Source: an uncultured Actinomycetes bacterium (GTDB taxonomy: Bacteria; Actinomycetota; Actinomycetes; Streptosporangiales; Streptosporangiaceae). Taken from it: 64,000 bases of DNA. Position numbers and translations under genes: made by a program. The stretch spans positions 134,011 to 198,010 of the forward strand of contig CAWCJS010000005.1 in NCBI GenBank assembly GCA_963795795.1, written 5' to 3'. Under the pieces are notes generated by a model. The model was not told the origin of the DNA. It searched no databases and was given only the letters and a program-made list of their open reading frames with translations. Positions 35,832-56,450 of the stretch are shown here, piece after piece; within the stretch, counting starts at the first letter, position 1, and each line of letters starts with the position of its first letter.

Positions 35832-37581
35832 TCAGGTTTCGGGGTCCTGCCCTGCGGTGGTGGCGGGCGGGCTGGGTCCGGGGGGCGGGCTGGGTCCGGG
35901 GGGCGGGCTGGGTCCGGGTGGCGGGCTGTGGCTGCGGATGATCTTCCGTGCCGGGCTGCTGTCGACCTCGCTGGTCCCGTCCGGGTGGACGGTGAGCTGC
36001 CAGCCCATCTCGTGCAACACCACGTGATGGTGCCACCAACAATAGTTCTTCAGGCCCGCCAGGCTGGTGTGCCCGCCGTCCTGGCGGTGCACCACATGAT
36101 GCGGCTCACACGCGGACGCGGGCTGGTCACACCCGCCCGGGAACTGGCACGTCTGGTCCCGCAGGGCCACCAGCCGCCGCAGGTGGACGGGGATGTCGTC
36201 GGTCTGCCCGACGTCCAGCGGCAGCGAGGGGCCGTTCAATCCCTTGCCGAGCAGGTTCCGGCGCAGGAAGGAGGCGACGCCGCCGGGGCCGGAGACGATC
36301 TGCAGGACGGTGGCCAGGATCTGGTGCTCCAGCATGGCCAGCACCTGCGCCGCCCGCCCGGCGTGGCCCGCCTGCTCGGCCTGGGCGCTGGGGTTGAGGT
36401 CGGATCCGGCCTCGGTGACTGCGCCGCCGCCAGCGCCGGTGCCCAGGTCGGCGTCCGCGCCGCCGCCGGTGTCGGTGTCGGTGCCGCGCGTCCGTGCAGC
36501 CGCCGGTGCCGGTTTGGTCCGCTGCCTGCCGGCGCAGGTGCTCGTACTGCACGCACAGCCCGATTAGCTGCTCCACCGCGCCCAGGTCCAGATCGCCGAT
36601 GACCACGGGGACCAGGATCGCGTCGCACGCCACCCGGCGGGCCGCATCGCCCTCCAGCCAGGCCCCGCCGTCCCCCGTGCTCACCGACGCCGCCGCCCGC
36701 TGGCCCGCCCACCGCGCCCGATACCCGGCGATCCACGCCTCCTGCAACTTGGAATCCACATCCAGCTCACACAGATCGGCGAACGACATGTGGACCAGCG
36801 CCTTGACCGGCTGCCCGGCCCGCTGCGGCAGCAGACCGGACGCCAGCAGCCGCTTCATCGCCTCGGCGAGCGCGTCGTGGTAGCGCTGCGGCCGGGTCCG
36901 CAGGTCCCCGCCGCCGGCCGGGGCCGACAGCGCGTCCAGCACCGCCTGCACCATCGCGGCGCACTCCGGCGTGAGGTCGCCGCGGACGACCCCGGCCCCG
37001 TCCAGGGTCGTATCCAGGAACAGCGCCCGGTCCAGCGCCGGATCCCTCCCGTCCGGATCCGGCGGCACGGTCCGGGACCGGATCTCCGCGCAGATCTGCG
37101 CCAGCGCCCGCAGGTCCGCCCCGGCCCGCGCGGCGGCGACGAGGATCTCCTCCGCCTGGGCCCGGAACTCCGCCGGGATCTGCCGGGTCCACTTGGCCAG
37201 CTGCAGCGCCTGCGACTTGGTGAGCGCCCCAGAGCGGAGCCCGGCCAGCAGCGGCTCATGATCGCGGGGCAGGGCCCGCATGGCCTTGTACTGGGCGGCC
37301 TGCGCCCGGGTCACCCGGCCCATGTGCACCAGCCAGGCTCCCAGGGTCTTCTGCCCGTCGCCCTGGTGCCCGTCCTGGGCGTCAAAGGCGGCCAGCATCC
37401 GGGCCCACGCCACCGCCCAGACCGCGTCGGCCTGCTCCATCCCCTGCAAGAGCCCGGCCAGCGCCGCGGCCGGCAGGCTCGCCGCGTCCAGGTCGGCTAG
37501 GTGGCCGGCCAGGGCCTGGAGCTGCTTTAGGGTGTCGGCCGCGCTCGGCGGGCCTGTCGTCGTGCACATGTGCTGTCTCAC
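35832..37581 (-). pseudogene. DUF222 / HNH endonuclease protein (REP13E12-like family), frame broken near 36487
   Basis: The N-terminal DUF222-type helical region is in one frame. After ...GTGGCTDA the frame shifts and continues GTDTDTGGGADADLG...VLAMLEHQ... to the HNH motif CQFPGGCDQPASACEPHHVVHRQDGGHTSLAGLKNYCWWHHH. Confidence 0.75.
35867..35931. repeat. 18-bp tandem repeat x3.5, encoding (PPPGPS)n at the HNH protein C-terminus
   Basis: GCGGGCTGGGTCCGGGGG repeated head-to-tail. Confidence 0.85.
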
Positions 37582-44325: not shown

Positions 44326-44371
44326 TGCGGGAGGGGAACTAATCGCCGTTCGGGATAAAGGGTCTTTGTAG
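44326..44371 (+). repeat. copy B of the duplicated 45-nt element, abutting the helicase start codon
   Basis: TGCGGGAGGGGAACTAATCGCCGTTCGGGATAAAGGGTCTTTGTAG. Compare with 28010-28053. Confidence 0.7.
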
Positions 44372-46914
44372 TGGTGCGGGCAGGGCACGATGGAACGGCC
44401 ATGTTGCTCATCGATCTCCTGCCTGAGACGCCCGATCCGGACGAGGTCTTCGACGCGTTCGCGGAGTGGGCCAAGCGGCGCGGGCTGGCGCTGTACCCGC
44501 ACCAGGAGGACGCGCTCATCGAGATCGTGTCCGGGGCGAATGTCATCTTGTCGACTCCCACGGGGTCGGGGAAGAGCCTGGTCGCCATGGGGGCCCATTT
44601 CACCGCGCTCGCGGACGGCCGGCGGACGTTCTATACGGCGCCGATCAAGGCCCTGGTGTCGGAGAAGTTCTTCGACTTGTGTGCGGCGTTCGGGCCGGAC
44701 GAGGTCGGGATGATGACCGGGGACGCCAGCGTCAACGCCGACGCGCCGATCATCTGCTGCACCGCCGAGATCCTGGCCAACCTCGCGTTGCGCGACGGCG
44801 CCGCGGCGGACGTGGGTCAGGTGGTGATGGATGAATTCCACTACTACGCCGACCCCGATCGCGGTTGGGCCTGGCAGGTCCCGCTGATCGAACTGCCGCG
44901 CGCGCAGTTCCTGCTGATGTCGGCGACGCTGGGTGACGTTTCGCGGTTCGAAGCGGACCTGACCCGGCGTACTGGGCGACCGACTGCGGTGATCGAGTCC
45001 GCCGAGCGCCCGGTGCCGCTGACCTTCTCCTTTGTCGTGCAGCCGCTGCACGAGACGCTGGAGGAACTGCTCTCGACGGATCAGGCGCCGGTGTACGTGG
45101 TGCACTTCACGCAGGTGGCGGCGCTGGAGCAGGCGCAGGCCCTGATGAGCATCAACGTCTGCAGCCGCGCGGAGAAGGATGCCATCGCGGAGCTGATCGG
45201 AAACTTCCGGTTCTCTGCTGGTTTCGGGAAGACCCTTTCTCGGCTGGTGCGGCACGGGATCGGGGTCCATCACGCGGGGATGCTGCCCCGGTACCGGCGG
45301 CTGGTGGAGACGCTCACCCAGGCCGGGCTGCTGAAGGTCATCTGCGGGACGGACACCCTCGGCGTCGGGATCAACGTGCCGATCCGGACGGTGCTGTTCA
45401 CCGCGCTGTCCAAGTACGACGGGAAGCGGACCCGGCTGCTGCAGGCCCGCGAGTTCCACCAGATCGCCGGGCGCGCGGGGCGGGCGGGGTACGACACGGT
45501 CGGGCGGGTCGTCGTGCAGGCGCCTGAGCACGTGGTGGAGAACGAAAAGGCCCTGGCCAAGGCGGGCGACGACCCTCGGTTGCGGCGGAAGGTAGTCAGG
45601 AAGAAGCCGCCGGAGGGGCTCGTCTCGTGGGGGCAGCCGACCTTCGAGCGGCTGGTGGCCGCCTCGCCCGAGCCGCTGACCTCGAGCTTCAAGGTCACGC
45701 ACGCCATGGTGCTGAACGTGATCGCCCGGCCGGGTGACGCCTTCGCGGCGATGCGCCATCTGCTGACCGACAACGACGAGGACCGGCCGGCCCAACGTCG
45801 GCACATTCACCAGGCGATCGCGATCTACCGGGCGCTGCTGGCGGGGGGTGTGGTGGAGGTGTTGCCTGCGCCCGATGATCTGGGACGCATGGTGCGGCTG
45901 ACGGTGGACCTGCAGTTCGACTTTGCTTTGAACCAGCCGCTTTCGCCGTTCGCGCTGGCCGCAATCTCGCTGCTGGACCGATCGGATCCTTCGTACCCGC
46001 TGGATGCGGTTTCGGTTATTGAGGCGACCCTGGATGATCCGCGGCAAGTGCTGTCCGCCCAGCAGTTCCGCGCCCGCGGCGAGGCGGTCGCGCAGATGAA
46101 GGCGGATGGGGTCGAGTATGAGAGGCGGCTCGAGCTGCTGGACTCGGTTACGTATCCCAAGCCGCTTTCGGAGCTGCTCGACGGGGCGTACGAGATATAC
46201 CGGCAGGGTCATCCTTGGGTCGCGGACTATGAGCTGTCGCCGAAGGGCGTGGCTCGGGATATGTATGAGCGGGCGCTGACCTTTACCGAGTACGTCGGGT
46301 TCTACGGGCTGGCGCGGTCTGAGGGGCTGGTGCTGCGGTATCTGGCGGACGCTTATAAGGCGCTGCGGCAGACGGTGCCGGACGAGGCTAAGACCGAGGA
46401 GCTCACGGATCTGATCGAGTGGCTGGGAGAGACCGTTCGGCAGGTGGACTCCAGCTTGCTTGACGAGTGGGAGCGGCTGCGGGACGGGTCGGGTGCTTCG
46501 GGCTTTTCTGGTGCGCGGCCTGACGATCGGCCGCCTTCGGTGACTGGGAACGCCCGGGCGTTCCGGGTACTGGTGCGGAACGCGTTGTTCCATCGGGTCA
46601 AGCTTGGTGCGCTCGGGCATTACGAGGAGCTGGGTCTGCTGGACGCGGAGAGTGGCTGGAACGCCTCCGCTTGGGCTGCCGCGCTCGAGGGGTACTTCGA
46701 GGTCCACGACGAGATCGGCACCGGGCCGGATGCTCGCGGGCCCGGGATGCTTCTCATTGACGAGCAATCGAGCCCAGGTCAGTGGGTCGTGCGGCAGATC
46801 CTTGATGACCCCGCCGGTGACCACGACTGGGGCATCAGTGCTGTGGTCGATTTGGGGGCCTCGGACGAGGCGGGAACGGTGGTGCTGCGCGTTACCGATG
46901 TTGGGCAGCTGTAA
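44371..46914 (+). CDS. Ski2-like DEAD/DEAH-box helicase with a long C-terminal domain (DUF3516-type architecture)
   Basis: LSTPTGSGKSLVA (motif I), MDEFHYY (motif II DEFH), MSATLG (III) and HHAGMLP...QIAGRAGRAG (VI). The start is 44371 (GTG) or 44401 (ATG). Confidence 0.85.
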   Translation: MVRAGHDGTAMLLIDLLPETPDPDEVFDAFAEWAKRRGLALYPHQEDALIEIVSGANVILSTPTGSGKSLVAMGAHFTALADGRRTFYTAPIKALVSEKFFDLCAAFGPDEVGMMTGDASVNADAPIICCTAEILANLALRDGAAADVGQVVMDEFHYYADPDRGWAWQVPLIELPRAQFLLMSATLGDVSRFEADLTRRTGRPTAVIESAERPVPLTFSFVVQPLHETLEELLSTDQAPVYVVHFTQVAALEQAQALMSINVCSRAEKDAIAELIGNFRFSAGFGKTLSRLVRHGIGVHHAGMLPRYRRLVETLTQAGLLKVICGTDTLGVGINVPIRTVLFTALSKYDGKRTRLLQAREFHQIAGRAGRAGYDTVGRVVVQAPEHVVENEKALAKAGDDPRLRRKVVRKKPPEGLVSWGQPTFERLVAASPEPLTSSFKVTHAMVLNVIARPGDAFAAMRHLLTDNDEDRPAQRRHIHQAIAIYRALLAGGVVEVLPAPDDLGRMVRLTVDLQFDFALNQPLSPFALAAISLLDRSDPSYPLDAVSVIEATLDDPRQVLSAQQFRARGEAVAQMKADGVEYERRLELLDSVTYPKPLSELLDGAYEIYRQGHPWVADYELSPKGVARDMYERALTFTEYVGFYGLARSEGLVLRYLADAYKALRQTVPDEAKTEELTDLIEWLGETVRQVDSSLLDEWERLRDGSGASGFSGARPDDRPPSVTGNARAFRVLVRNALFHRVKLGALGHYEELGLLDAESGWNASAWAAALEGYFEVHDEIGTGPDARGPGMLLIDEQSSPGQWVVRQILDDPAGDHDWGISAVVDLGASDEAGTVVLRVTDVGQL

Positions 46915-46926
46915 CGGGCGTTCGGA

Positions 46927-48399
46927 TCACATGGGTCGTTTGTGAGCCGCATCCAGGTTCTCTTTAGTAAGCAGGTCGCTGCCCAACTTCCACTTGGCAG
47001 CTATCCAGAACTCTTGGTCCCGGTCGGCTGGGCGATCAGCGTTCTCCCACAGGGCGTAGGCGGTCTTCGCGACGTCCTCATGGAGCCACTCGCTGTCGAC
47101 GTCCTCAAAGAGCCACGGACTGTCCGTCGGGTATCGGTATTTCAAAGCGAGTTCTTCTTGATGCTTGACCTCCGACGGCCCCTCAAGCATACGGAGATAG
47201 CGGTTCACGCACGGAAGAGTCCGGCCCATAAAATAGCGCAGCATAACGCGGCTGGACTGCGCCTCACCCTGATCTGTCTGTATCCAGAACGAGAGCTCGA
47301 CTTCAGTTGGGCATAGATTGACGTAGTCGAAGAGATGCAGTCCGAAACGGTAAGCGGAGTCTGGGTCCAGAAGTACTGGATCTGGCAGGCGGCAGGAGGC
47401 TCGCTCCGCCAGCTCGGTCCAGACGGGTGTCCACAAATCTCCCTCGCGCTGGTAGGACGTCTGCCCGGCGGCACGCTGCGCTTCGGCAAAACTGCGCCAT
47501 ACATCGGGCATGGGAAACTGATAGGTACGGTGCAGCGGAATCGGGGTGGCCAGGCCGGCACCGCCAAGGCCGTCGTGCGCTTGGAAGCTGGCCCTTAGTA
47601 CGTCGATCCCGATGCGCGTAATCAGCCTGGATGCGGCCGATCGGTTGATTACTGTCATGTCGAAAATAGGATCTTCATACGTCCCCAGGCCTCCGTGAAA
47701 TGACCAGGGTGCGGGCGCGGAGGACGGCGAGTCAGGGTCGGGCGAACGCCCTCCCGCCCAAGTCGGGCACTCATCGGCTATGGCGATATCCGCGAAATCG
47801 ATGATCTGGGATACCCGATTCAGACCGGTGTAGGGAGACTTCGATACGGCTTTCTCGATCATCTGGAGCTTCGGCCTAGAGCGTCCATCGTCAGGTCGGA
47901 TCTCCCAGTTCGGTCCCTTGATCTTCCGGACCACGGCCTCAGCGATCTCGCTCGGCTCCATAGTCCGAAGGTCCAGATATGCCGTCGTCCGCGGCAAACC
48001 TGGCGGCCATGAATCGTCGAGCACCACGGGCAGCACGTATTCCTCGGTAGTCTCCAAGGCATGCGCCAACGCAATGCGGCGCTCGAGGATAGTGTACGGC
48101 TTCCGGCAATAGTCCTCTGATATGAGTATTACGCAGTATCTCGCTCCGCCGCCATAGATGCTCCCTAGATAATCAGAGAGGTCCTTCCCCCAGGTCTCCC
48201 ATACGTGGAATTCGTCGAAGTAGACGCGCAATCCGTTCGCCCGTGCCGAATCTGCGATCCGGCGCGCCACTTCGCGGTCTTCGCCGGCGAACGACAAGGC
48301 CAGATCGTAACTGTAATCGCGAGGCAACGGCAGGAGAGCTGCGGAAGCAGTTTGAACGCTATAAGCCTCTGGCGAGTCCCGTTCGGAAGATGAGGTCAT
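46927..48399 (-). CDS. TIR-domain protein with an uncharacterised ~330-aa C-terminal region ending in a DUF2934-like tail
   Basis: Residues about 29-160 read YDLALSFAGEDREVARRIADSARANGLRVYFDEF...WGKDLSDYLGSIYGGGARYCVILISEDYCRKPYTILERRIALAHA...YVLPVVLDDSWPPGLP. This matches the bacterial TIR pattern and includes the conserved Glu (E106, codon 48082-48084). The tail AKTAYALWENADRPADRDQEFWIAAKWKL resembles DUF2934. GGAGG lies 8 nt upstream. GC is visibly lower than the flanks. Confidence 0.75.
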   Translation of the reverse strand: MTSSSERDSPEAYSVQTASAALLPLPRDYSYDLALSFAGEDREVARRIADSARANGLRVYFDEFHVWETWGKDLSDYLGSIYGGGARYCVILISEDYCRKPYTILERRIALAHALETTEEYVLPVVLDDSWPPGLPRTTAYLDLRTMEPSEIAEAVVRKIKGPNWEIRPDDGRSRPKLQMIEKAVSKSPYTGLNRVSQIIDFADIAIADECPTWAGGRSPDPDSPSSAPAPWSFHGGLGTYEDPIFDMTVINRSAASRLITRIGIDVLRASFQAHDGLGGAGLATPIPLHRTYQFPMPDVWRSFAEAQRAAGQTSYQREGDLWTPVWTELAERASCRLPDPVLLDPDSAYRFGLHLFDYVNLCPTEVELSFWIQTDQGEAQSSRVMLRYFMGRTLPCVNRYLRMLEGPSEVKHQEELALKYRYPTDSPWLFEDVDSEWLHEDVAKTAYALWENADRPADRDQEFWIAAKWKLGSDLLTKENLDAAHKRPM

Positions 48400-48647
48400 T
48401 CCAGCGCCTCCGGTTACAAACAGCTCGACGATGCGCTTGAGAGAATCGCCCCGGCCACTTCATGGTAGGGCATTAGGGCTGAGGTGGAGGTAGGGCGCCC
48501 ACAGCCCACGGCAGTGGCTCGCCGGGCCAGTCTCTGGTCCGGGCGATGTATCAGGGCAGGAGTCAGGCCCTCCGTCCCAGTAGGGATTCAATGCCTCACC
48601 CTGTCCTGATCTTGGCGGTCCGGGTGGCGCGAGGAGGAGGGGCATCA

Positions 48648-49460
48648 GTGAACGAGCGAAGCCGTGACAACAATGAGCTCATCGTCTCCTATCTGTTCCT
48701 GCGCCGGACCGTGGGGTGGATCGGAACCCTGCTGCCGATCGTCTTGCTGGTCGGCAACGCGCTGACGTCGACCGCGCCGCGGCCGGGTTCCATTAGCGGT
48801 TACTACTACACCGACATGCGCAACATCTTCGTCGGGGCGCTGTGCGCGCTCGGCGTCTTCCTCGTGGCGTATCGGGGCTATGACGACGTGGATGACGCAA
48901 TTACCACTGTCGCCGGGTTCGCCGTGGTCGGCGTCGCGTTTTGTCCGACCAAGCCGGCGGTCTGCACGGCGGGCGCTGGAGCGTGCCCCGCGTCGTCGGT
49001 CGCGCGTCTATCGACCAGCCAGCAGGTGGTGGGTGACATTCACGTGGCCTTGGCGGCCATCGCCTTGATCGCGCTTGGTCTGATGGCGCTGCGCTTCGCT
49101 AAGCGGGGAGAGACGCCGCCTGGCTTGAGTTCGATGGGTCAACTCCGGTACGGCCTGGGTTTCGGGGCGCCGGGTGAGGGCTGGACGCAGCGCTACGCCG
49201 GGGAAACTGCCATCTACCGGGCCAGCGGCATAACGGTCTTGGGCTGCGTGGTCTTGGCCGCGCTATCGAACCTGCTGCCGGTTTCGGTCAAGGCTCACTG
49301 GCCGTCGCTGTTCATCTTCGAGGCGGCTGCGGTCTTCGCGTTCGGGGTCTCCTGGTTCGTGAAGGGCCGGGCCATCGAGGCGATCCGGGACCGGATTCGG
49401 AAGGGCAGGCCCGGTACGCACGCTTCCCCCTCGATCCGGGAACTGCAAGGCCAGCCCTAA
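48648..49460 (+). CDS. hypothetical polytopic membrane protein
   Basis: The GTG at 48648 follows GGAGGAGG. About 6 TM segments (GWIGTLLPIVLLVG, IFVGALCALGVFLVAY, VAGFAVVGVAFCP, IHVALAAIALIALGLMAL, ITVLGCVVLAALSNLL, LFIFEAAAVFAFGVSWF). Divergent from the TIR gene. Confidence 0.6.
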   Translation: MNERSRDNNELIVSYLFLRRTVGWIGTLLPIVLLVGNALTSTAPRPGSISGYYYTDMRNIFVGALCALGVFLVAYRGYDDVDDAITTVAGFAVVGVAFCPTKPAVCTAGAGACPASSVARLSTSQQVVGDIHVALAAIALIALGLMALRFAKRGETPPGLSSMGQLRYGLGFGAPGEGWTQRYAGETAIYRASGITVLGCVVLAALSNLLPVSVKAHWPSLFIFEAAAVFAFGVSWFVKGRAIEAIRDRIRKGRPGTHASPSIRELQGQP

Positions 49461-49493: not shown

Positions 49494-50502
49494 ATGTCGC
49501 GTGGTGTGAGCGCGGAGCTCGGGCCGTGGATCGACCTGCACAGTCACGCTGGCCGGTGCTACCTGGCCGGCCTGGCCGCCGGGCATCCGATGGTGACCGC
49601 GCTGGGCGCGGCGTCGGTTACCGACGCGTTGCGGGACGCGGCGGCCGCTGGCGTGACCGCGCTGATGCTGGCCACCGTGTCCGACTTCGCGGTGCTGCGA
49701 CCCGACCCGGTGACCGGGCTGCGCGCTTACCGGGACTTCGCTCCCGATGAGGCTTACACCGATCACCGTCGTCAACTGGACGGGATCCGCGGGGCGGTGG
49801 CTGCAGCTGGCGTGGAGGTAGCGACTTCGGCGGCCGGGGTGGACCGGGCCTTCCGCGACGGTCGCACCGCGGTGTTGCTTGGGTGCGAGGGCGGTGACTT
49901 CCTCGAGGGCGACCTGCGGCGGCTGGAGGAGGCCCGCGCGGACGGCGTTACGGTGCTCACCCTGGTGCACTATCGGGTCAACGAGATCGGCGACGTGCAG
50001 ACCTCACCGCCGGTGCACGGTGGTCTGAGCCGGTTCGGCCGGGATGTGGTCGCCGAGTGCAACCGGCTGGGCATCGTGGTCGACTGCGCACACGCCAGCT
50101 TCGATACCACGATGGCCGTGCTGGAGGTATCGGACCAGCCGGTGATCATTTCTCACGGCCAGCTTGGCCACCCGGGCTCCTCCCACCCGCGGCTGCTGAC
50201 CTCAGCGCACGTGACCGCGGTTGCCTCGGCCGGCGGGTTGATCGGCGCCTGGCCAGTCGGGTTGACCAGCCAGTCCCTGGCCGATTTCGGCGCCGAGGTC
50301 ATCCGGCTCAGCGAGGTGGCCGGGCCCGGCCACGTGGCCATCGGCACCGACCTGGACGGCAATTACCGGCCCGTCCTGACCAGCTACTTTCAGTTCGCTG
50401 ACCTGGGCGGACATGCTCCACGACCGTGGGCTCCCGGCCGCGCACATCCGGCAAATCCTCGGCGGTAACGCCGTGGAGCTGCTGAACCGCATCGGGCCGT
50501 AA
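49494..50502 (+). pseudogene. membrane dipeptidase (peptidase M19 family), frame broken near 50408
   Basis: IDLHSH, LTLVHYRVNEIGD, VVDCAHAS, IISHG and AIGTDLDG metal-ligand regions. After ...FADLGG the frame shifts and continues DMLHDRGLPAAHIRQILGGNAVELLNRIGP to the stop at 50500-50502. Confidence 0.7.
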
Positions 50503-50613: not shown

Positions 50614-51873
50614 ATGGAACGAAATACAGAGGGCCCGCTCGCGGAATATGTCGCGCTACGCCAAGAGGTCACGGCGAGACTCGGCTTCATGCATCAGCTA
50701 ATGGCGCTTCAGCTTACGATCACAGGGACCATCACCGCAGTCAGCTTCTCGGCATCCGGCAGGTCACACCTGCTCTTGGTGCTGCCGTGGACCTCTTACC
50801 TCCTGTGCGGCAGGTATATATCGCAGGAATATGGCATAGACCGGATCGGAGAGTATAACCGGCGGCACCTAGCCTACATCATTCCCGGGGCGCTCGGCTG
50901 GGAAAAATGGATGGTAGATCACCCGCGACGGTTCACTACTCTTGGCTGGCGTATCCCGCTGATAGTAGCATTCCCCGGAGTGGCGATCTTTGCTCTAGCG
51001 TTGAGCGCTAAGTCGGTGTTCGGAGTCCGTCAGTATTCTCTCATTGCCGTGGCGCTGATCATTGTGTGGTTTATCGGTCTGATCTTGACCATACTTTCTG
51101 TCGTCACGATTAACTGGATTCTGAACTATCGCAAGAAAGCGCACATCGTGACATTCGCACTGGACGGGTCCCTTAGCCTCTCTGCTATCGTCTTCGACGT
51201 TGACGGCCTGATGATCGACAGCGAGCGCGGCGAACGGACGGCTTGGCAGGCCGCGGCGGAGGAGTTCGGCTGCACCATCTCAGATGCGGAATTCGCCACG
51301 ATAATCGGCGTTTCTCACTCGGCGGCAAGAGACATACTCACCCAGGCGTGGTCTGGTAAGTCAAACAACGCATGTGATTTCGATAAGATCTTCGCCCGGA
51401 AACTGGAGCTGGCCAGCCGAGTTCCCATAGAGAAGAAACCCGGACTCGAATCATTGATGTGTTGGGCTGAGTCGCTGTCGATACCTATGGCGATAGCAAG
51501 TTCGACGCAACGCGAGCTGGTGGTCGACCGGCTCGCTAGGGCACGCGTTGATCCGGGCAGGTTTAAGGTAATTGTATGTGGTGATGATGTCTCCGAGGTT
51601 AAGCCGGCTCCTGATATCTACCTGCTCGCGGCCAGGAAACTGAGGCTTAAACCACGCGCTTGCCTGGTGCTTGAGGACTCGGATAATGGCGTCCGTGCCG
51701 CGAATGCTGCCGGGGCAATTCCCGTCTTGATCCCCGACATGGCATTGCGTGCGGGGTCGGCGCCCCCCGTTGATGTTGCGGCCATGGCGTACGCACAATT
51801 TGAATCTCTGCAGGAAGTCGAAGATCATCTGCGTAAGAAGATCTGGTCGTGGAACCGCCAGAAGTCCGAATGA
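50614..51873 (+). CDS. fusion of an N-terminal ~185-aa membrane module (4-5 TM) with a C-terminal HAD-IA phosphatase (beta-phosphoglucomutase-like)
   Basis: HAD motifs: IVFDVDGLMIDSE (I), ASSTQRE (II), K in SEVKPAPDIY and LEDSDNGVRAANAAG (III/IV). The N-terminal TM stretches include LMALQLTITGTITAVSF, LLLVLPWTSYLL, IPLIVAFPGVAIFALAL and LIAVALIIVWFIGLILTILSVV. GC is strikingly low (40-58% in hand-counted lines). Confidence 0.7.
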   Translation: MERNTEGPLAEYVALRQEVTARLGFMHQLMALQLTITGTITAVSFSASGRSHLLLVLPWTSYLLCGRYISQEYGIDRIGEYNRRHLAYIIPGALGWEKWMVDHPRRFTTLGWRIPLIVAFPGVAIFALALSAKSVFGVRQYSLIAVALIIVWFIGLILTILSVVTINWILNYRKKAHIVTFALDGSLSLSAIVFDVDGLMIDSERGERTAWQAAAEEFGCTISDAEFATIIGVSHSAARDILTQAWSGKSNNACDFDKIFARKLELASRVPIEKKPGLESLMCWAESLSIPMAIASSTQRELVVDRLARARVDPGRFKVIVCGDDVSEVKPAPDIYLLAARKLRLKPRACLVLEDSDNGVRAANAAGAIPVLIPDMALRAGSAPPVDVAAMAYAQFESLQEVEDHLRKKIWSWNRQKSE

Positions 51874-52373: not shown

Positions 52374-52466
52374 ACTCTGGGCTACCACGCGGACTCGGGG
52401 CAGTTCCCGCTGCGCGTATCACGGTTGCCCTCGGCGTCCTCCTTATGGTTTAGGGAGGGTTCGCCG

Positions 52467-55400
52467 GTGAATTCTTCTCCCGAGAACGGTGCCGAGCCGG
52501 TTCAGGTGGAGACCGGGGCGGTTGGCGGGTATTCGGTCGATGCCCGGGGTGGCATGGGTGTGCAGGTCGGTGACCGCAACATCCAGATTAACTACGCGTA
52601 TAACGGGCTGACGCTGACCGATGGGGTGGCGCCGCCGCCGCTGGTGAGCGTGTCGGGGGCGGTGGATTCTCCGTATCGCGGCTTGGGCGCGTTTGAAGAG
52701 CAGGACGCGCCATTTTTCTACGGCCGGGAGGAGGCGGCCACCCACCTGCTTGAGCGGATGTCGGGGCTGCTGGATGGTCCGGGCTTGCTGGTGGTGTCGG
52801 GTGTGTCGGGTGCGGGTAAGTCGTCGCTGCTGCGGGCGGGCGTCCTGCCGCGGATCCGGGGGGCTGGGCTGGCGGGCTCGCCGGGAGCGGCCTCGTGGCC
52901 GTGCCTGGTGTTCACCCCGGGCCGGGCGCCGCTGGACGAGCTGGCGCTGCGGGTGGGGTTGCTGGCCGGGGCGGATGCGGCTGCGGTGCGGCGCGGACTG
53001 GACGCCGATCCCGGTGGATTCGCGCTCACCGCCCGTCAGGCCGCCCTCGCCTCGCCTCCGCTGCCCGGTGGGGAGCTGGGAGGCCCGGCCGCGCGGGCGG
53101 CCGGGTCGTCGGCGGGTCAGCGGCGATTGCTGCTCGTGGTCGACCAGTTCGAGCAGGTGTTCACGCAGTGCCCCGATGAAGGGCAGCGGCAGGCCTTCGT
53201 TACCGCCTTGTGTGCGGCCGCCGGGGCCGGTCCCGGGTCGGGCGGCCGCACACCGGCGGCGCTGGTGGTGCTAGGGGTGCGGGCCGATTTCGAGGCGCGC
53301 TGCGCGAATTACCCCGAGCTGGCCGGCGCGGTCCAGGACCGCTACCTGGTGACGGCGATGACCGAGCGGCAGCTGCGGATGGCCATCACCGAGCCGGCCA
53401 AGACGGCAGGCTCGCGCGTTGACGAGGACCTGGTCGAGGTCTTGCTCGCCGAGGTGCGGGCCCGCCAGCCTGGAGCCGCCGGGGCGGGCGTGCTGCCGTT
53501 GCTGTCGCACGCCCTGGACCAGGCCTGGCGGTCCAAGACCGGGGAGATCCTGACCGTGGCGGACTACGAGCGCACCGGCGGGATCGAGGGGGCCGTCGCC
53601 GATAGCGCCCAGCGCGCGTACGACCACCTCACCCCCGGCCAGCAGGCCGCGGCCCGGCAGGTGTTTACCCGGCTGACCGCCGCCAGCAGCGACGGGATGG
53701 ACACCGCTGACCGGGCCACCAGGGCGGAGCTGACCGAAGGCAGGAACCCGGCCGGGGCGGGCGACGTGGAAGCGGTACTGGAGGCCTTCGCCGGAGAACG
53801 CCTGCTGACCCTGGCCGCGGATAGCGTGGAGATCAGCCACGAGGTGCTGCTGACGGCCTGGCCGCTACTGCGCGACACCTGGCTCACCGAAACCCACGCG
53901 GACCGGATCGTCCGCACCCGGCTGCACAATGTCTCAGCCGAATGGGCCCGCCAGTCCCGTGACCCGTCCTATCTCTACGGCGGATCTCTGCTCCAGGCCG
54001 CCGCCGAAACCGCCGCCCGGACCGGCGCCGACCCCGCCCGCAACCCCCCGCTGAGCCAGACCGAACGGGACTTCCTGCACGCCAGCGACCGCGCCCGCCG
54101 CCGGAGGGCACGCACGCGGCACGCGGTGACCGCGGTCCTGCTGGCGCTCACGCTAACCGCGGTCATTACCGCCGGGATCGCCGTATCGAACGCCGCCAAC
54201 GCTCACCAGCAAGCCGCTAACGCGGCCCGGCAAGCCGCCAACGCGGCCCGGCAACACGCCATCGCCCTGTCTCGGCAGCTCGCGGCCGAAAGCCTCAATA
54301 TCGACGCCGATTATCCGGTGACCGCGCGACGGCTAGCCGTCGCGGCCTGGCGGGTCTCCCCCACCCAGCAGGCCGACTCGGCGATGGCGAGCCTGATGAC
54401 CGAGCAGCAGGAAGACGGCATCCTGCCCGGCGGTACCTCTTACGTGAACGCGTTGGTGTTCAGCCCGGTCGGAGACCTGCTGGCCAGCGCCGACGCCGAC
54501 GGCACGGTACGGCTGTGGGACACGGCGACCGGCCAGTCCGTCCGGACGATCAAGGCTGATACCGCCGGTCACGGCGCCGACGTGAACGGGGTGGCGTTCA
54601 GCCCCGACGGCAAGCTGCTGGCCAGCGCGGACGGCGACGGCACGGTACGGCTCTGGGATCCGGCCACCGGTCGGCTCGTCCGCACGATCCAGGCCGATAC
54701 CAGCGGCGTGAACGGGGTGGCGTTCAGCTCCGATGGGAGGCTGCTGGCCAGCGCCGACTACGGCGGCCTGGTGCGGTTGTGGGATCCGGCCACGGGCCGG
54801 CCCGTCCGATCGATCCGGGCGGATAGCTCCGGCGCCCAGAGCCCCATCGAAGCCAACGGGGTGGCATTCAGCCCCGGCGGGGGGATGCTGGCCAGCGCCG
54901 ACGACGACGGCACGGTACGGCTGTGGGATCCGGCCACTGGCCGGCTCGTCCGCACGATCCGGGTCGGTTCCGCCGACGTCTCCGACGGCGTCAACGTGGT
55001 GGCGTTCAGCCCGAACGGCCACCTGCTGGCCACCGGCGACCAACTCGGCAGCGCGCCGGGGTTGTGGGATCCGGCCACCGGGCGGGCCGCCGCATTGCGC
55101 CAGGGCAACGCCGACTCGACTGGCAATGTGGACGGGGTGGCGTTCAGCCCGGTCGGCGACCTGCTGGCCAGCGTCTACGATGACGGCACGGTGGCGTTGT
55201 GGGATACGGTCACCGGCCGGCCCGACCGCACGATCCAGCCCGCCGCCACCGGGCTGCCTCCTGAGAGCAACGGCCGAATACTTCCCATCGGAAATGAGGT
55301 CGCGTTCGGCCCCGGCGGCACGCTGCTCGCCACCGCTGACTCCGACGGCACGGTACGGCTGTGGGATCCGGCCACCGGCCAGCCCGTCCGCACGATCCCG

Positions 55401-56450
55401 GCCGACATCGGCTCACACGAGTTGGCGTTCAGCCCTGGCGGCACACTGCTAGCCAGCGCCGACAACGACGGCACGGTACGGCTGTGGGATCCGGCCACCG
55501 GCCAGCCCGTCCGCACGATCCAGGCGGACACCACCGGTCAGAACACCGGCGTGAATGACGTGGCGTTCAGCCCGGTCGGTGAGCTGCTGGCCAGCGCGGA
55601 CGCCGACGGCACGGTGCGGCTGTGGGATCCGGCCACCGGCCGACTCGTCCGCACCATCCAGGCCTACCTCCCCGCCGACCGTAGTGTCGGCGGAGGAGTG
55701 AGCGAGGTGGCGTTCGGCCCAGGTGGCACGCTGCTGGCCAGCGTCGACTCGGCCGGCTCGGTGCGACTGTGGGATCCGGCCACCGGCCGTCCCGTCCGGA
55801 CGATCGTGGCCTACACGCCCGGCAGCCCGAACTCCTTTGTGGACGGAGCGGCGTTCGGCCCCGGCGGCACGCTGCTGGCCAGTGATGACGGCCCCAACGG
55901 CACGGTGCGGCTGTGGGATCCGGCCACTGGCCGGCTCGCCCGCACAATCCAGGACGACAACTTCGGCGGCCAGAACCCCGGCTTCGCGAACGCGGTGGCG
56001 TTCAGCCCGGTTGGCGACCTGCTGGCCAGTGCCGACGCCGACGGCACGGTGCGGCTGTGGAATCCGGCCACCGGCCGGCTCGTCCGCACCATTCAGGCGG
56101 ACGACACAGGCCAGCAAGGCGTGGACGAACTGGCGTTCAGCCGCGACGGCACGCTACTGGCCAGCGCCGACTCCAATGGCACGGCGGGACTCTGGAACCC
56201 CGTCACCGGCCAGGACATCAGCATGATCCAAGCCGACACCACCGGCCAGAACATCGGCGTAGACGAGGTGGCCTTTAGCCCCGACAGCCAGCTGCTGGCC
56301 AGCCTCGATGGAGACGGCGTAGTGCGGTTGTGGGAAGTAGCGCAATTCACCGATCCTTATCGAGCGCTATGCGCCGACGTCGGTCCGCCAACACCGCAGG
56401 AGTGGAAGCAGTACGCCCCTGGTGAATCGCTGCCCAAGGTCTGCGCTTGA
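52467..56450 (+). CDS. NLR-like STAND protein: N-terminal amyloid-like motif, P-loop NTPase, single TM helix, 14 WD40 repeats
   Basis: The GTG at 52467 follows GGGAGGG. Motif GGYSVDARGGMGVQVGDRNIQINYA (52524-52598). SPYRGLGAFEEQDAPFFYGRE. Walker A GVSGAGKS (52800-52823) and Walker B-like LLLVVDQFEQ. TM helix AVTAVLLALTLTAVITAGIAV (about 54124-54195). 14 units of ..VAFSP.G.LLASAD.DGTVRLWDPATGR.VRTIQAD. Confidence 0.8.
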   Translation: MNSSPENGAEPVQVETGAVGGYSVDARGGMGVQVGDRNIQINYAYNGLTLTDGVAPPPLVSVSGAVDSPYRGLGAFEEQDAPFFYGREEAATHLLERMSGLLDGPGLLVVSGVSGAGKSSLLRAGVLPRIRGAGLAGSPGAASWPCLVFTPGRAPLDELALRVGLLAGADAAAVRRGLDADPGGFALTARQAALASPPLPGGELGGPAARAAGSSAGQRRLLLVVDQFEQVFTQCPDEGQRQAFVTALCAAAGAGPGSGGRTPAALVVLGVRADFEARCANYPELAGAVQDRYLVTAMTERQLRMAITEPAKTAGSRVDEDLVEVLLAEVRARQPGAAGAGVLPLLSHALDQAWRSKTGEILTVADYERTGGIEGAVADSAQRAYDHLTPGQQAAARQVFTRLTAASSDGMDTADRATRAELTEGRNPAGAGDVEAVLEAFAGERLLTLAADSVEISHEVLLTAWPLLRDTWLTETHADRIVRTRLHNVSAEWARQSRDPSYLYGGSLLQAAAETAARTGADPARNPPLSQTERDFLHASDRARRRRARTRHAVTAVLLALTLTAVITAGIAVSNAANAHQQAANAARQAANAARQHAIALSRQLAAESLNIDADYPVTARRLAVAAWRVSPTQQADSAMASLMTEQQEDGILPGGTSYVNALVFSPVGDLLASADADGTVRLWDTATGQSVRTIKADTAGHGADVNGVAFSPDGKLLASADGDGTVRLWDPATGRLVRTIQADTSGVNGVAFSSDGRLLASADYGGLVRLWDPATGRPVRSIRADSSGAQSPIEANGVAFSPGGGMLASADDDGTVRLWDPATGRLVRTIRVGSADVSDGVNVVAFSPNGHLLATGDQLGSAPGLWDPATGRAAALRQGNADSTGNVDGVAFSPVGDLLASVYDDGTVALWDTVTGRPDRTIQPAATGLPPESNGRILPIGNEVAFGPGGTLLATADSDGTVRLWDPATGQPVRTIPADIGSHELAFSPGGTLLASADNDGTVRLWDPATGQPVRTIQADTTGQNTGVNDVAFSPVGELLASADADGTVRLWDPATGRLVRTIQAYLPADRSVGGGVSEVAFGPGGTLLASVDSAGSVRLWDPATGRPVRTIVAYTPGSPNSFVDGAAFGPGGTLLASDDGPNGTVRLWDPATGRLARTIQDDNFGGQNPGFANAVAFSPVGDLLASADADGTVRLWNPATGRLVRTIQADDTGQQGVDELAFSRDGTLLASADSNGTAGLWNPVTGQDISMIQADTTGQNIGVDEVAFSPDSQLLASLDGDGVVRLWEVAQFTDPYRALCADVGPPTPQEWKQYAPGESLPKVCA
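54441..56340 (+). repeat. 14 tandem WD40-coding units with very high internal DNA conservation
   Basis: Near-identical 35-40-nt cores GACGGCACGGT(A/G)CGGCTGTGGGATCCGGCCACCGGCC recur about every 120-150 nt. Confidence 0.85.

Follow-up and report, generated by a model that had tools for sequence, protein, structure and literature searches.

A TIR–β-sandwich–DUF2934 protein on a Streptosporangiaceae metagenome contig and the superfamily of its candidate β-sandwich switch domain

A stretch of 64,000 nucleotides from an uncultured actinobacterium of the family Streptosporangiaceae (GCA_963795795.1, contig CAWCJS010000005.1, positions 134,011 to 198,010; hereafter the window) carries on its reverse strand a gene (46927..48399) for a 490-residue protein in which an N-terminal TIR domain precedes a predicted β-sandwich domain (β-domain) and a helical tail with a DUF2934 match. 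With moderate confidence, this protein can be interpreted as a stand-alone, horizontally acquired, cytoplasmic TIR enzyme degrading nicotinamide adenine dinucleotide (a NADase), whose β-domain would sense a trigger or control self-association such that a two-TIR site depletes NAD+. TIR fusion proteins are already known as a kind, and relatives of this one have been labelled 'TIR domain/DUF2934' by JGI. What is new is the recognition of the middle region as a discrete β-sandwich without a model in the four profile libraries searched, the delineation of its superfamily of about 300 clusters and the catalogue of its conflict-type partners; the TIR-β-DUF2934 architecture is not described in the literature found on DUF2934, PDC-S66 and TIRs with a β-sandwich. 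The parts of the gene, on the minus strand unless stated otherwise, are as follows (positions are those of the window).

48407..48411: Shine-Dalgarno-like GGAGG, 7 nt 5' of the ATG, read from the sequence
46927..48399: whole gene (TIR, linker, β-sandwich and helical DUF2934 tail), 490 codons plus stop, ATG start, from the open reading frame (ORF) list and translation
48316..48399: N-terminal extension, residues 1–28, predicted to be disordered, in closer homologues only
47917..48315: TIR domain, residues 29–161, from Pfam TIR_2 and PDB sequence and structure matches
48082..48084: GAG codon of E106, the predicted catalytic glutamate, aligned with AbTir E208
47812..47916: linker, residues 162–196, of low confidence or disordered, with variable alignment columns
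47224..47811: β-sandwich domain, residues ~197–392, with 12 strands, an inserted helix (residues 300–311) and a Gly-rich loop (residues 275–288)
46930..47223: helical C-terminal tail, residues 393–490, with AlphaFold2 helices at 396–406, 408–422, 437–453 and 461–483
47070..47123 (no strand assigned): tandem 27-nt duplication (PWLFEDVDS / EWLHEDVAK), copies 81% identical, directly before DUF2934, from a repeat search
46996..47082: DUF2934 (PF11154), residues 440–468, Pfam E=1.9e-6, 27.9 bits (cut-off 22)
46930..46944: terminal H-K-R-P-M motif, residues 486–490, an H-K-R-P-[LMF]-like end being kept in most members

The TIR domain and its predicted catalytic residues

The Pfam profile TIR_2 (PF13676) matches residues 35–147 (E=7.2e-16, 59.2 bits, cut-off 28), and a phmmer search against PDB sequences recovers TIRs of the AbTir type (7uxr, 7uwg, 8g83). 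The AlphaFold2 model of the full protein, which shows a flavodoxin-like TIR fold, has a mean predicted local distance difference test score (pLDDT) of 74.9, with TIR residues 30–161 mostly at ~73–88 and a low-confidence loop near residues 61–70. Its best Foldseek match in the PDB is AbTir 7uxu (E=4.7e-7, target-normalised TM-score (TMt) 0.83, root-mean-square deviation (rmsd) 2.2 Å, 25% identity), after which come the TIR-APAZ protein of SPARTA, MyD88, SARM1 and plant TIRs. An earlier note, made from the letters of the window, had proposed an ORF with a TIR domain here and had placed E106 at the position of the glutamate used for NAD+ cleavage, and both proposals are borne out: in the PDB alignments the YTILE of the query pairs with WTNYE of AbTir, equating E106 with E208. 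The counterparts of AbTir W204, T205, G174 and L177 are Y102, T103, G71 and L74. Eight positions, namely S36, D41, D62, G71, L74, Y102, T103 and E106, are invariant in the TIR-bearing members of the family (36/36). In AbTir itself, the E208A mutant is fully inactive, W204, four residues before E208, is required for the cyclisation of adenosine diphosphate ribose (ADPR), the W204 position is aromatic in every TIR making cyclic ADPR products, and G174 of the BB-loop is required for activity (doi 10.1101/2022.05.07.491051). The predicted catalytic set of the TIR domain is complete and strongly constrained as read from the alignments, and the protein would be expected to act as an NADase of the AbTir type, either as an NAD+ glycohydrolase or as a cyclase.

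The likeness to the AbTir/TcpB-type NADases (7uxu, 7uwg, 8g83) thus extends over the TIR fold, the catalytic Glu with an aromatic residue four positions N-terminal to it, and the BB-loop Gly, as well as the SxxxED and (Y/F)DE motifs, which are also present in the window protein. In contrast, the non-TIR part of AbTir is an N-terminal coiled coil, whereas the window protein carries its TIR on the N-terminal side, ahead of the β-sandwich and the DUF2934 tail, and the equivalents of AbTir S176 and R178 differ. A further relative is the PADLOC candidate PDC-S66, which is the only PADLOC match of the window protein (E=1.4e-10) and has the same TIR subtype; however, positions 146–240 of its 282-position profile pair with residues 28–125 of the query, leaving the β-sandwich and the tail unmatched, and the TIR of PDC-S66 is therefore C-terminal. 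The same subtype (40–49% identity over residues ~25–162) is abundant in Candidatus Poribacteria and other metagenome-assembled genomes (MAGs; L010-L071), where it is fused to C-terminal regions that the β-domain profile does not match, for example in proteins of ~400 residues. Hence, the TIR head also shuffles among different tails.

The β-sandwich domain and its superfamily

The ~330 residues beyond the TIR, which the earlier note had not recognised, are a genuinely unannotated C-terminal region: in the AlphaFold2 model they split into a disordered linker (pLDDT <50 at residues 174–196), a β-domain of ~195 residues and a helical tail, and DUF2934 is the sole match within them in the profile libraries. 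The likeness of the last residues to DUF2934, proposed on the same occasion, is upheld by the Pfam match listed above, and the annotation is precomputed for most homologues. The β-domain is matched by no profile in Pfam-A 2025, NCBIfam r20, PHROGs v4 or PADLOC-DB 2.0, and its own profile finds nothing among PDB sequences, the weak matches stemming from winged helix-turn-helix (wHTH) overhang columns. Modelled by itself (residues 192–395, from an alignment of 65 sequences), the domain reaches a pLDDT of 87.6 and a predicted TM-score (pTM) of 0.85, with the Gly-rich loop flexible. Foldseek returns weak generic immunoglobulin (Ig)/Fn3-like matches in the PDB, every one with a query-normalised TM-score (TMq) <=0.37: among them are ApaG, NPC2/ML, the arrestin-like Spo0M and TXNIP-N, transglutaminase barrels, C-terminal domains from GH3 enzymes and, with E=7e-4, the Fn3 domain of C5a peptidase. 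In BFVD uncharacterised phage proteins alone are recovered, at scores similar to those of the PDB matches. The fold class of the modelled β-domain is clear, and it lacks a specific known relative.

Two other parts of the protein vary within the family. The N-terminal extension (pLDDT <50 at residues 1–26) is missing from the alignment rows of P0015-P0035. The helical tail is absent or truncated in P0018, P0023, P0029, P0033 and P0034, and DUF2934 is therefore optional; the insertion created by the 27-nt duplication is confined in the alignment to the window protein and P0001-P0003. Among tail-less members, P0018, P0023 and P0033 end in a degenerate R-[RP]-[SP]-L, and the terminal HKRP-type motif may serve as a short linear motif for regulation or docking.

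Full-length homologues of the window protein form ~36–40 clusters at 39–93% identity, nearly all from soil metagenomes. The 90% cluster of the window protein (P0276-P0285) also holds two fragments, P0278 (129 residues) and P0280 (158 residues), from one 24,220-bp contig, which suggests that one population carries a copy that is disrupted or frameshifted; the contig of the window itself measures 295,770 bp. More widely, an exhaustive search of 1.84 billion cluster representatives with a hidden Markov model (HMM) built from residues 185–425 detected the β-domain in 294 representatives at E<=1e-3, of which 161 lie at E<=1e-10. Alignments of the superfamily, with the window protein as seed, share the conserved motifs F..I..W, DPxFDxTxxN, LTxVG, LPDP and YR[FY]xL. 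Of 146 distant members in which it was mapped, 119 have the domain at their extreme C-terminus, followed by <=10 residues. The architectures, written from the N- to the C-terminus, are the following.

TIR_2 or TIR, β-domain: at least 34 of 128 scanned
SEFIR/TIR, β-domain: P0208
CHAT, β-domain: P0144, P0149
CHAT, TIR, β-domain: P0172
PNP_UDP_1, β-domain: P0202
PNP, TIR, β-domain: P0178
Ser/Thr kinase, β-domain: P0165, P0209, P0239
EAD7, β-domain: P0148, P0151
TIR, EAD1 or EAD7, β-domain: P0162, P0161
OmpR-type wHTH, β-domain: P0222
one or two transmembrane (TM) helices, β-domain: many
β-domain, TPR arrays: P0155, P0166
TIR, β-domain, TPR arrays: P0129, P0253
β-domain alone: P0134, P0135

Taken with the models, these occurrences show the β-domain to be a real module, predicted to fold independently, that is widespread outside the TIR-β-DUF2934 family. 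Its partner domains match PADLOC models for established types of effector: ThsB, Aga-TIR, SAVED_CHAT, the CBASS PN-superfamily effector and the PD-T4-6 kinase. In the TM-anchored forms the β-domain is probably cytoplasmic by the positive-inside rule, because basic residues come after the TM helix. Five such proteins (P0146, P0223, P0232, P0247 and P0254) have a similar N-terminal helix, '..(I/V)IAA(L/I)ITAxATI..', before the basic residues, which suggests a conserved type of membrane-anchor or effector helix coupled to the β-domain.

EAD1 and EAD7 are adaptor domains of prokaryotic conflict systems (PMC8195603). The distant β-domain relatives resemble the EAD-linked systems of that study (Kaur, Burroughs, Iyer and Aravind, eLife 2021, PMC8195603) in carrying EAD1/EAD7 and in drawing on the same palette of TIR, caspase-like/CHAT, PNP and kinase domains; unlike those systems, the window protein has neither an EAD nor a linked operon with a STAND NTPase, and a term search of the paper (PMC8195603) found no mention of a β-sandwich module of this type.

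The same catalogue raises an alternative in which the β-sandwich is a receptor for a small molecule or second messenger, comparable to SAVED, STING or cNMP-binding domains, so that the protein would be the effector arm of a system whose synthase is encoded elsewhere. The grammar of the architectures, with N-terminal TIR, CHAT, PNP or TM segments before a constant C-terminal domain, is that of CBASS, Pycsar and type III CRISPR effectors, the family keeps seven polar residues without exception (D243, D247, N252, R337, D340, R351 and S382), and lipid-binding sandwiches of the NPC2/ML type are found among the weak fold matches. However, no cyclase or synthase occurs in any neighbourhood viewed, the fold matches are of the generic kind described above, and, to our knowledge, the known nucleotide sensors adopt folds other than the β-sandwich. 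Moreover, a comparison with the TIR effectors of CBASS and Pycsar (TIR-SAVED, TIR-STING and PycTIR) yielded no SAVED, STING or cNMP-binding match in Pfam or PADLOC, and no CD-NTase or cyclase neighbour. We accordingly regard a receptor of this kind as quite unlikely.

Acquisition of the gene and its genomic context

The TIR gene has a GC content of 0.59–0.61 between flanks that both lie at 0.65–0.76, and the lower GC remarked upon in the earlier note is more pronounced still at third codon positions (GC3): 0.686 for the TIR gene, against 0.856 for the helicase, 0.834 for the membrane protein, 0.831 for the M19 peptidase, 0.858 for the nSTAND1 gene and 0.932 for the short-chain dehydrogenase among its neighbours (a range of 0.83–0.93). 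Because of this difference in GC3 the gene is read as compositionally foreign and probably horizontally acquired. The ratio of nonsynonymous to synonymous substitution rates (dN/dS) against the L007 orthologue is 0.17 for the whole gene; by part, it is 0.095 in the TIR, 0.21 in the β-domain and 0.20 in the tail, and every part is therefore held by purifying selection. No direct or inverted repeats of note border the gene as insertion boundaries, and a clean empty site is not definable since synteny among the metagenome relatives decays fast. Scans for promoters and terminators gave no signal beyond the shuffle expectation, and tblastn against INPHARED phages and PLSDB plasmids returned zero matches, as did IMG/VR.

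In two loci of the same lineage (L007 and L074, with TIR proteins 93% identical) the layout is that of the window, and the helicase (98%), the membrane protein (96%) and the M19 peptidase (93%) are likewise conserved. Outside this lineage, zero neighbours are common to the eight distinct homologue contexts, and the gene therefore behaves as mobile single-gene cargo without an obligate partner. Some of these contexts are listed here.

P0018 (Solirubrobacter): flanked by a LuxR-type AAA_16 gene and a transporter
P0026 and L008: flanked by a sugar ABC transporter and KatG
P0005: hypothetical genes, a group II intron reverse transcriptase (RT) and a PDC-S60-like DUF4062 protein
P0035: transposases nearby
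P0014: a group II intron RT and a TrwC relaxase-primase nearby

Distant β-domain proteins are also encoded by isolated genes, such as P0267 beside an integrase and an excisionase, and P0172 with a SIR2_2 protein nearby.

Several genes in the window might nevertheless be considered as partners. The divergent neighbour (48546/48648..49460, plus strand) does encode a multi-pass membrane protein, as the earlier note had it, without a family match in the profile libraries, and the two genes stand adjacent and divergent both in the window and in L007 and L074. The note's further suggestion, a two-gene sensor-effector system made up of the TIR protein and this membrane protein, fared poorly. The membrane protein is common in soil metagenomes, where a scan detected 227 relatives, and among the 80 loci retrieved (53–96% identity) a TIR homologue is present at one, L074 of the same lineage (membrane protein 96% identical); the other 79 have none, many of them with 2–6 kb of upstream sequence. 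Conversely, the membrane gene is missing from the more distant TIR-family loci (L001-L006, L008 and L009), such that conservation of the pair is confined to L007 and L074. The membrane gene instead travels with a gene for an M19 dipeptidase (49494..50468, plus strand), which begins 33 nt downstream on the same strand and recurs beside it in L076, L094 and L146, and it has a native GC3 of 0.83, which sets it apart from the TIR gene. The pair is rejected for this lack of co-occurrence, and such a two-gene system must be considered extremely improbable.

On the other side, the convergent helicase gene (44371..46914) indeed ends 12 nt from the stop of the TIR gene, as had been noted. Its product is a DEAD-box protein with a full DUF3516 domain (E=3e-212), which HamB matches only in the generic helicase C-terminal region, and a Hachiman-like partnership is rejected on this ground and for the convergent arrangement; the combination of HamA with a full-length HamB was not found.

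About 4 kb from the TIR gene lies a gene (52425..56450, plus strand) for a 1341-residue STAND protein of the conflict-system type, with an ~82-residue N-terminus without assignment, an nSTAND1 NTPase domain (PF20703, E=1.8e-110, residues 83–514) and then approximately two WD40 β-propellers; it has no PADLOC match. The TIR protein might be an accessory effector of this nSTAND1-WD40 protein, given its proximity and the presence in distant β-domain relatives of EAD1/EAD7 adaptors of the type that joins effectors to STAND NTPases. However, an EAD is missing from the window TIR protein, three unrelated opposite-strand genes lie between the two, no nSTAND1 gene occurs in the other family contexts viewed, and the nSTAND gene is native in GC3 (0.86) while the TIR gene is foreign. 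This link thus appears very improbable.

Thoeris offers another analogy, in that ThsB also combines a TIR of predicted catalytic capacity with a non-TIR part that may sense infection, and it suggests an alternative in which the β-domain would sense infection and the TIR would make a cyclic ADPR isomer or a related nucleotide signal that activates an unlinked effector. The aromatic Y102, at the position of AbTir W204, permits such cyclase chemistry, and some β-domain relatives strongly match ThsB-type TIR profiles, P0129 with E=5e-52. Yet the window protein has another C-terminal domain, no adjacent ThsA and no match to the ThsB HMM in PADLOC; no ThsA-like gene (SIR2-SLOG or Macro/TM) was found within ~10 kb in the window or in the eight homologue contexts, nor do these contexts hold a recurrent partner. 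Membership in Thoeris, a system that the earlier note had mentioned, is thus not supported, and a signal producer of this general kind is unlikely. The TIR-APAZ proteins of SPARTA likewise have an N-terminal TIR before a larger C-terminal regulatory region, and their TIRs superpose on that of the window protein (Foldseek E about 3e-5). However, most of these alignments are limited to ~140–150 TIR residues, and the few that extend further reach an rmsd of 17–20 Å; no APAZ domain was found on the window protein and no short prokaryotic Argonaute gene among its neighbours.

Two further genes of the window deserve mention in their own right. One (50614..51873, plus strand) codes for a HAD-family hydrolase (β-phosphoglucomutase-like, residues 190–370) with a 190-residue N-terminal region without assignment; it occupies the patch with the lowest GC content in the region (0.54–0.58; GC3 0.655) and looks like a second, separately acquired gene. 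The other (36127..37581, minus strand) codes for a DUF222 protein, of a type associated in actinobacteria with HNH endonucleases; with the DUF3516 helicase, it is a hint that the DNA comes from an actinobacterium.

Proposed mechanism and its implications

The preferred interpretation, that of a stand-alone TIR NADase under the control of its β-domain, can be set out as a series of conditional steps. In the resting state the TIR domains would be held apart or inactive. The C-terminal β-sandwich would then recognise a trigger, most plausibly a component of a phage or mobile element, or else drive self-association, and the resulting clustering of TIRs would create a composite two-TIR active site that consumes NAD+ and leads to growth arrest of the abortive-infection type. 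We infer the immune role, the kind of trigger and the sensing or assembly role of the β-domain; the last of these is proposed because a single constant C-terminal module stands behind interchangeable effector heads, as is the case with the SAVED, CARF, STING, cNMP-binding and DSR2 sensor domains. A functional analogy may be drawn with DSR2 and other single-gene NADase defence proteins, which also combine an N-terminal NAD+-depleting enzyme with a C-terminal, non-enzymatic, putative trigger-binding part and work without a partner. In DSR2, however, the enzyme is a SIR2 rather than a TIR, the sensor is an α-solenoid C-terminal domain (PMC11850899) rather than a β-sandwich, and there is no sequence relationship between the two.

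Several observations weigh against this interpretation. At the positions of AbTir S176 and R178, both required for the filament-dependent activity of that enzyme, the family has D/N and S/N, so that the mode of assembly may differ. The PADLOC match, to the candidate PDC-S66, is partial and restricted to the TIR, and no full-length single-gene model was matched. The β-domain has no informative structural relative in the PDB or BFVD, its putative sensor role is drawn entirely from the logic of domain architectures, and the EAD7-β and β-only proteins could equally mean that it is an effector or adaptor. The genes next to the homologues are mainly of the housekeeping kind, and association with defence islands is suggestive at best, being weak and anecdotal. 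Finally, the full-length architecture is rare: in a set of 185,579 genomes, one per species, it occurs in two, those of Solirubrobacter taibaiensis and a Burkholderiaceae MAG. As to the anti-phage setting envisaged in the earlier note, the partners of the β-domain elsewhere are of the immune or conflict type.

Some of these points are also consistent with a role outside immunity, whether as an NAD+-linked regulatory or stress protein or as a TIR toxin aimed at other bacteria or at a host, for which the β-sandwich would provide targeting or an adhesion-like function. Research on bacterial TIR proteins such as AbTir, TcpB and TirS began with their role as virulence factors, binding is a frequent function of Ig/Fn3-like sandwiches, and the neighbourhood is, as stated, mostly one of housekeeping genes. 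However, the window protein lacks a signal peptide and any domain associated with secretion, and its N-terminus is short, polar and disordered; the source organisms are free-living soil bacteria, mostly known from metagenomes; and the CHAT, PNP, EAD1/7 and SEFIR partners of the β-domain are typical of intracellular conflict systems. A non-immune role is hence improbable.

Taking the superfamily as a whole, we tentatively propose that the β-sandwich might be a new and widespread module that senses triggers or controls assembly, and thereby switches TIR, SEFIR, CHAT, PNP, kinase and membrane-anchored effectors, with the tail comprising DUF2934 and the HKRP[LM] end as a possible extra autoregulatory element. 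Bacterial TIR effectors are well known, whereas the bottleneck in understanding single-gene immune proteins is how infection is sensed; in this respect, the β-domain has seven or more distinct partners of the effector or adaptor type across about 300 protein clusters. If it were merely a structural or oligomerisation module, the finding would shrink to another TIR fusion protein. If, on the other hand, it is indeed a sensor or assembly switch, then a single-gene protein of 490 residues with the loss of NAD+ as its read-out would be a tractable entry to a new mechanism of trigger recognition, and the β-domain could be added to the tools used for the prediction of defence systems.

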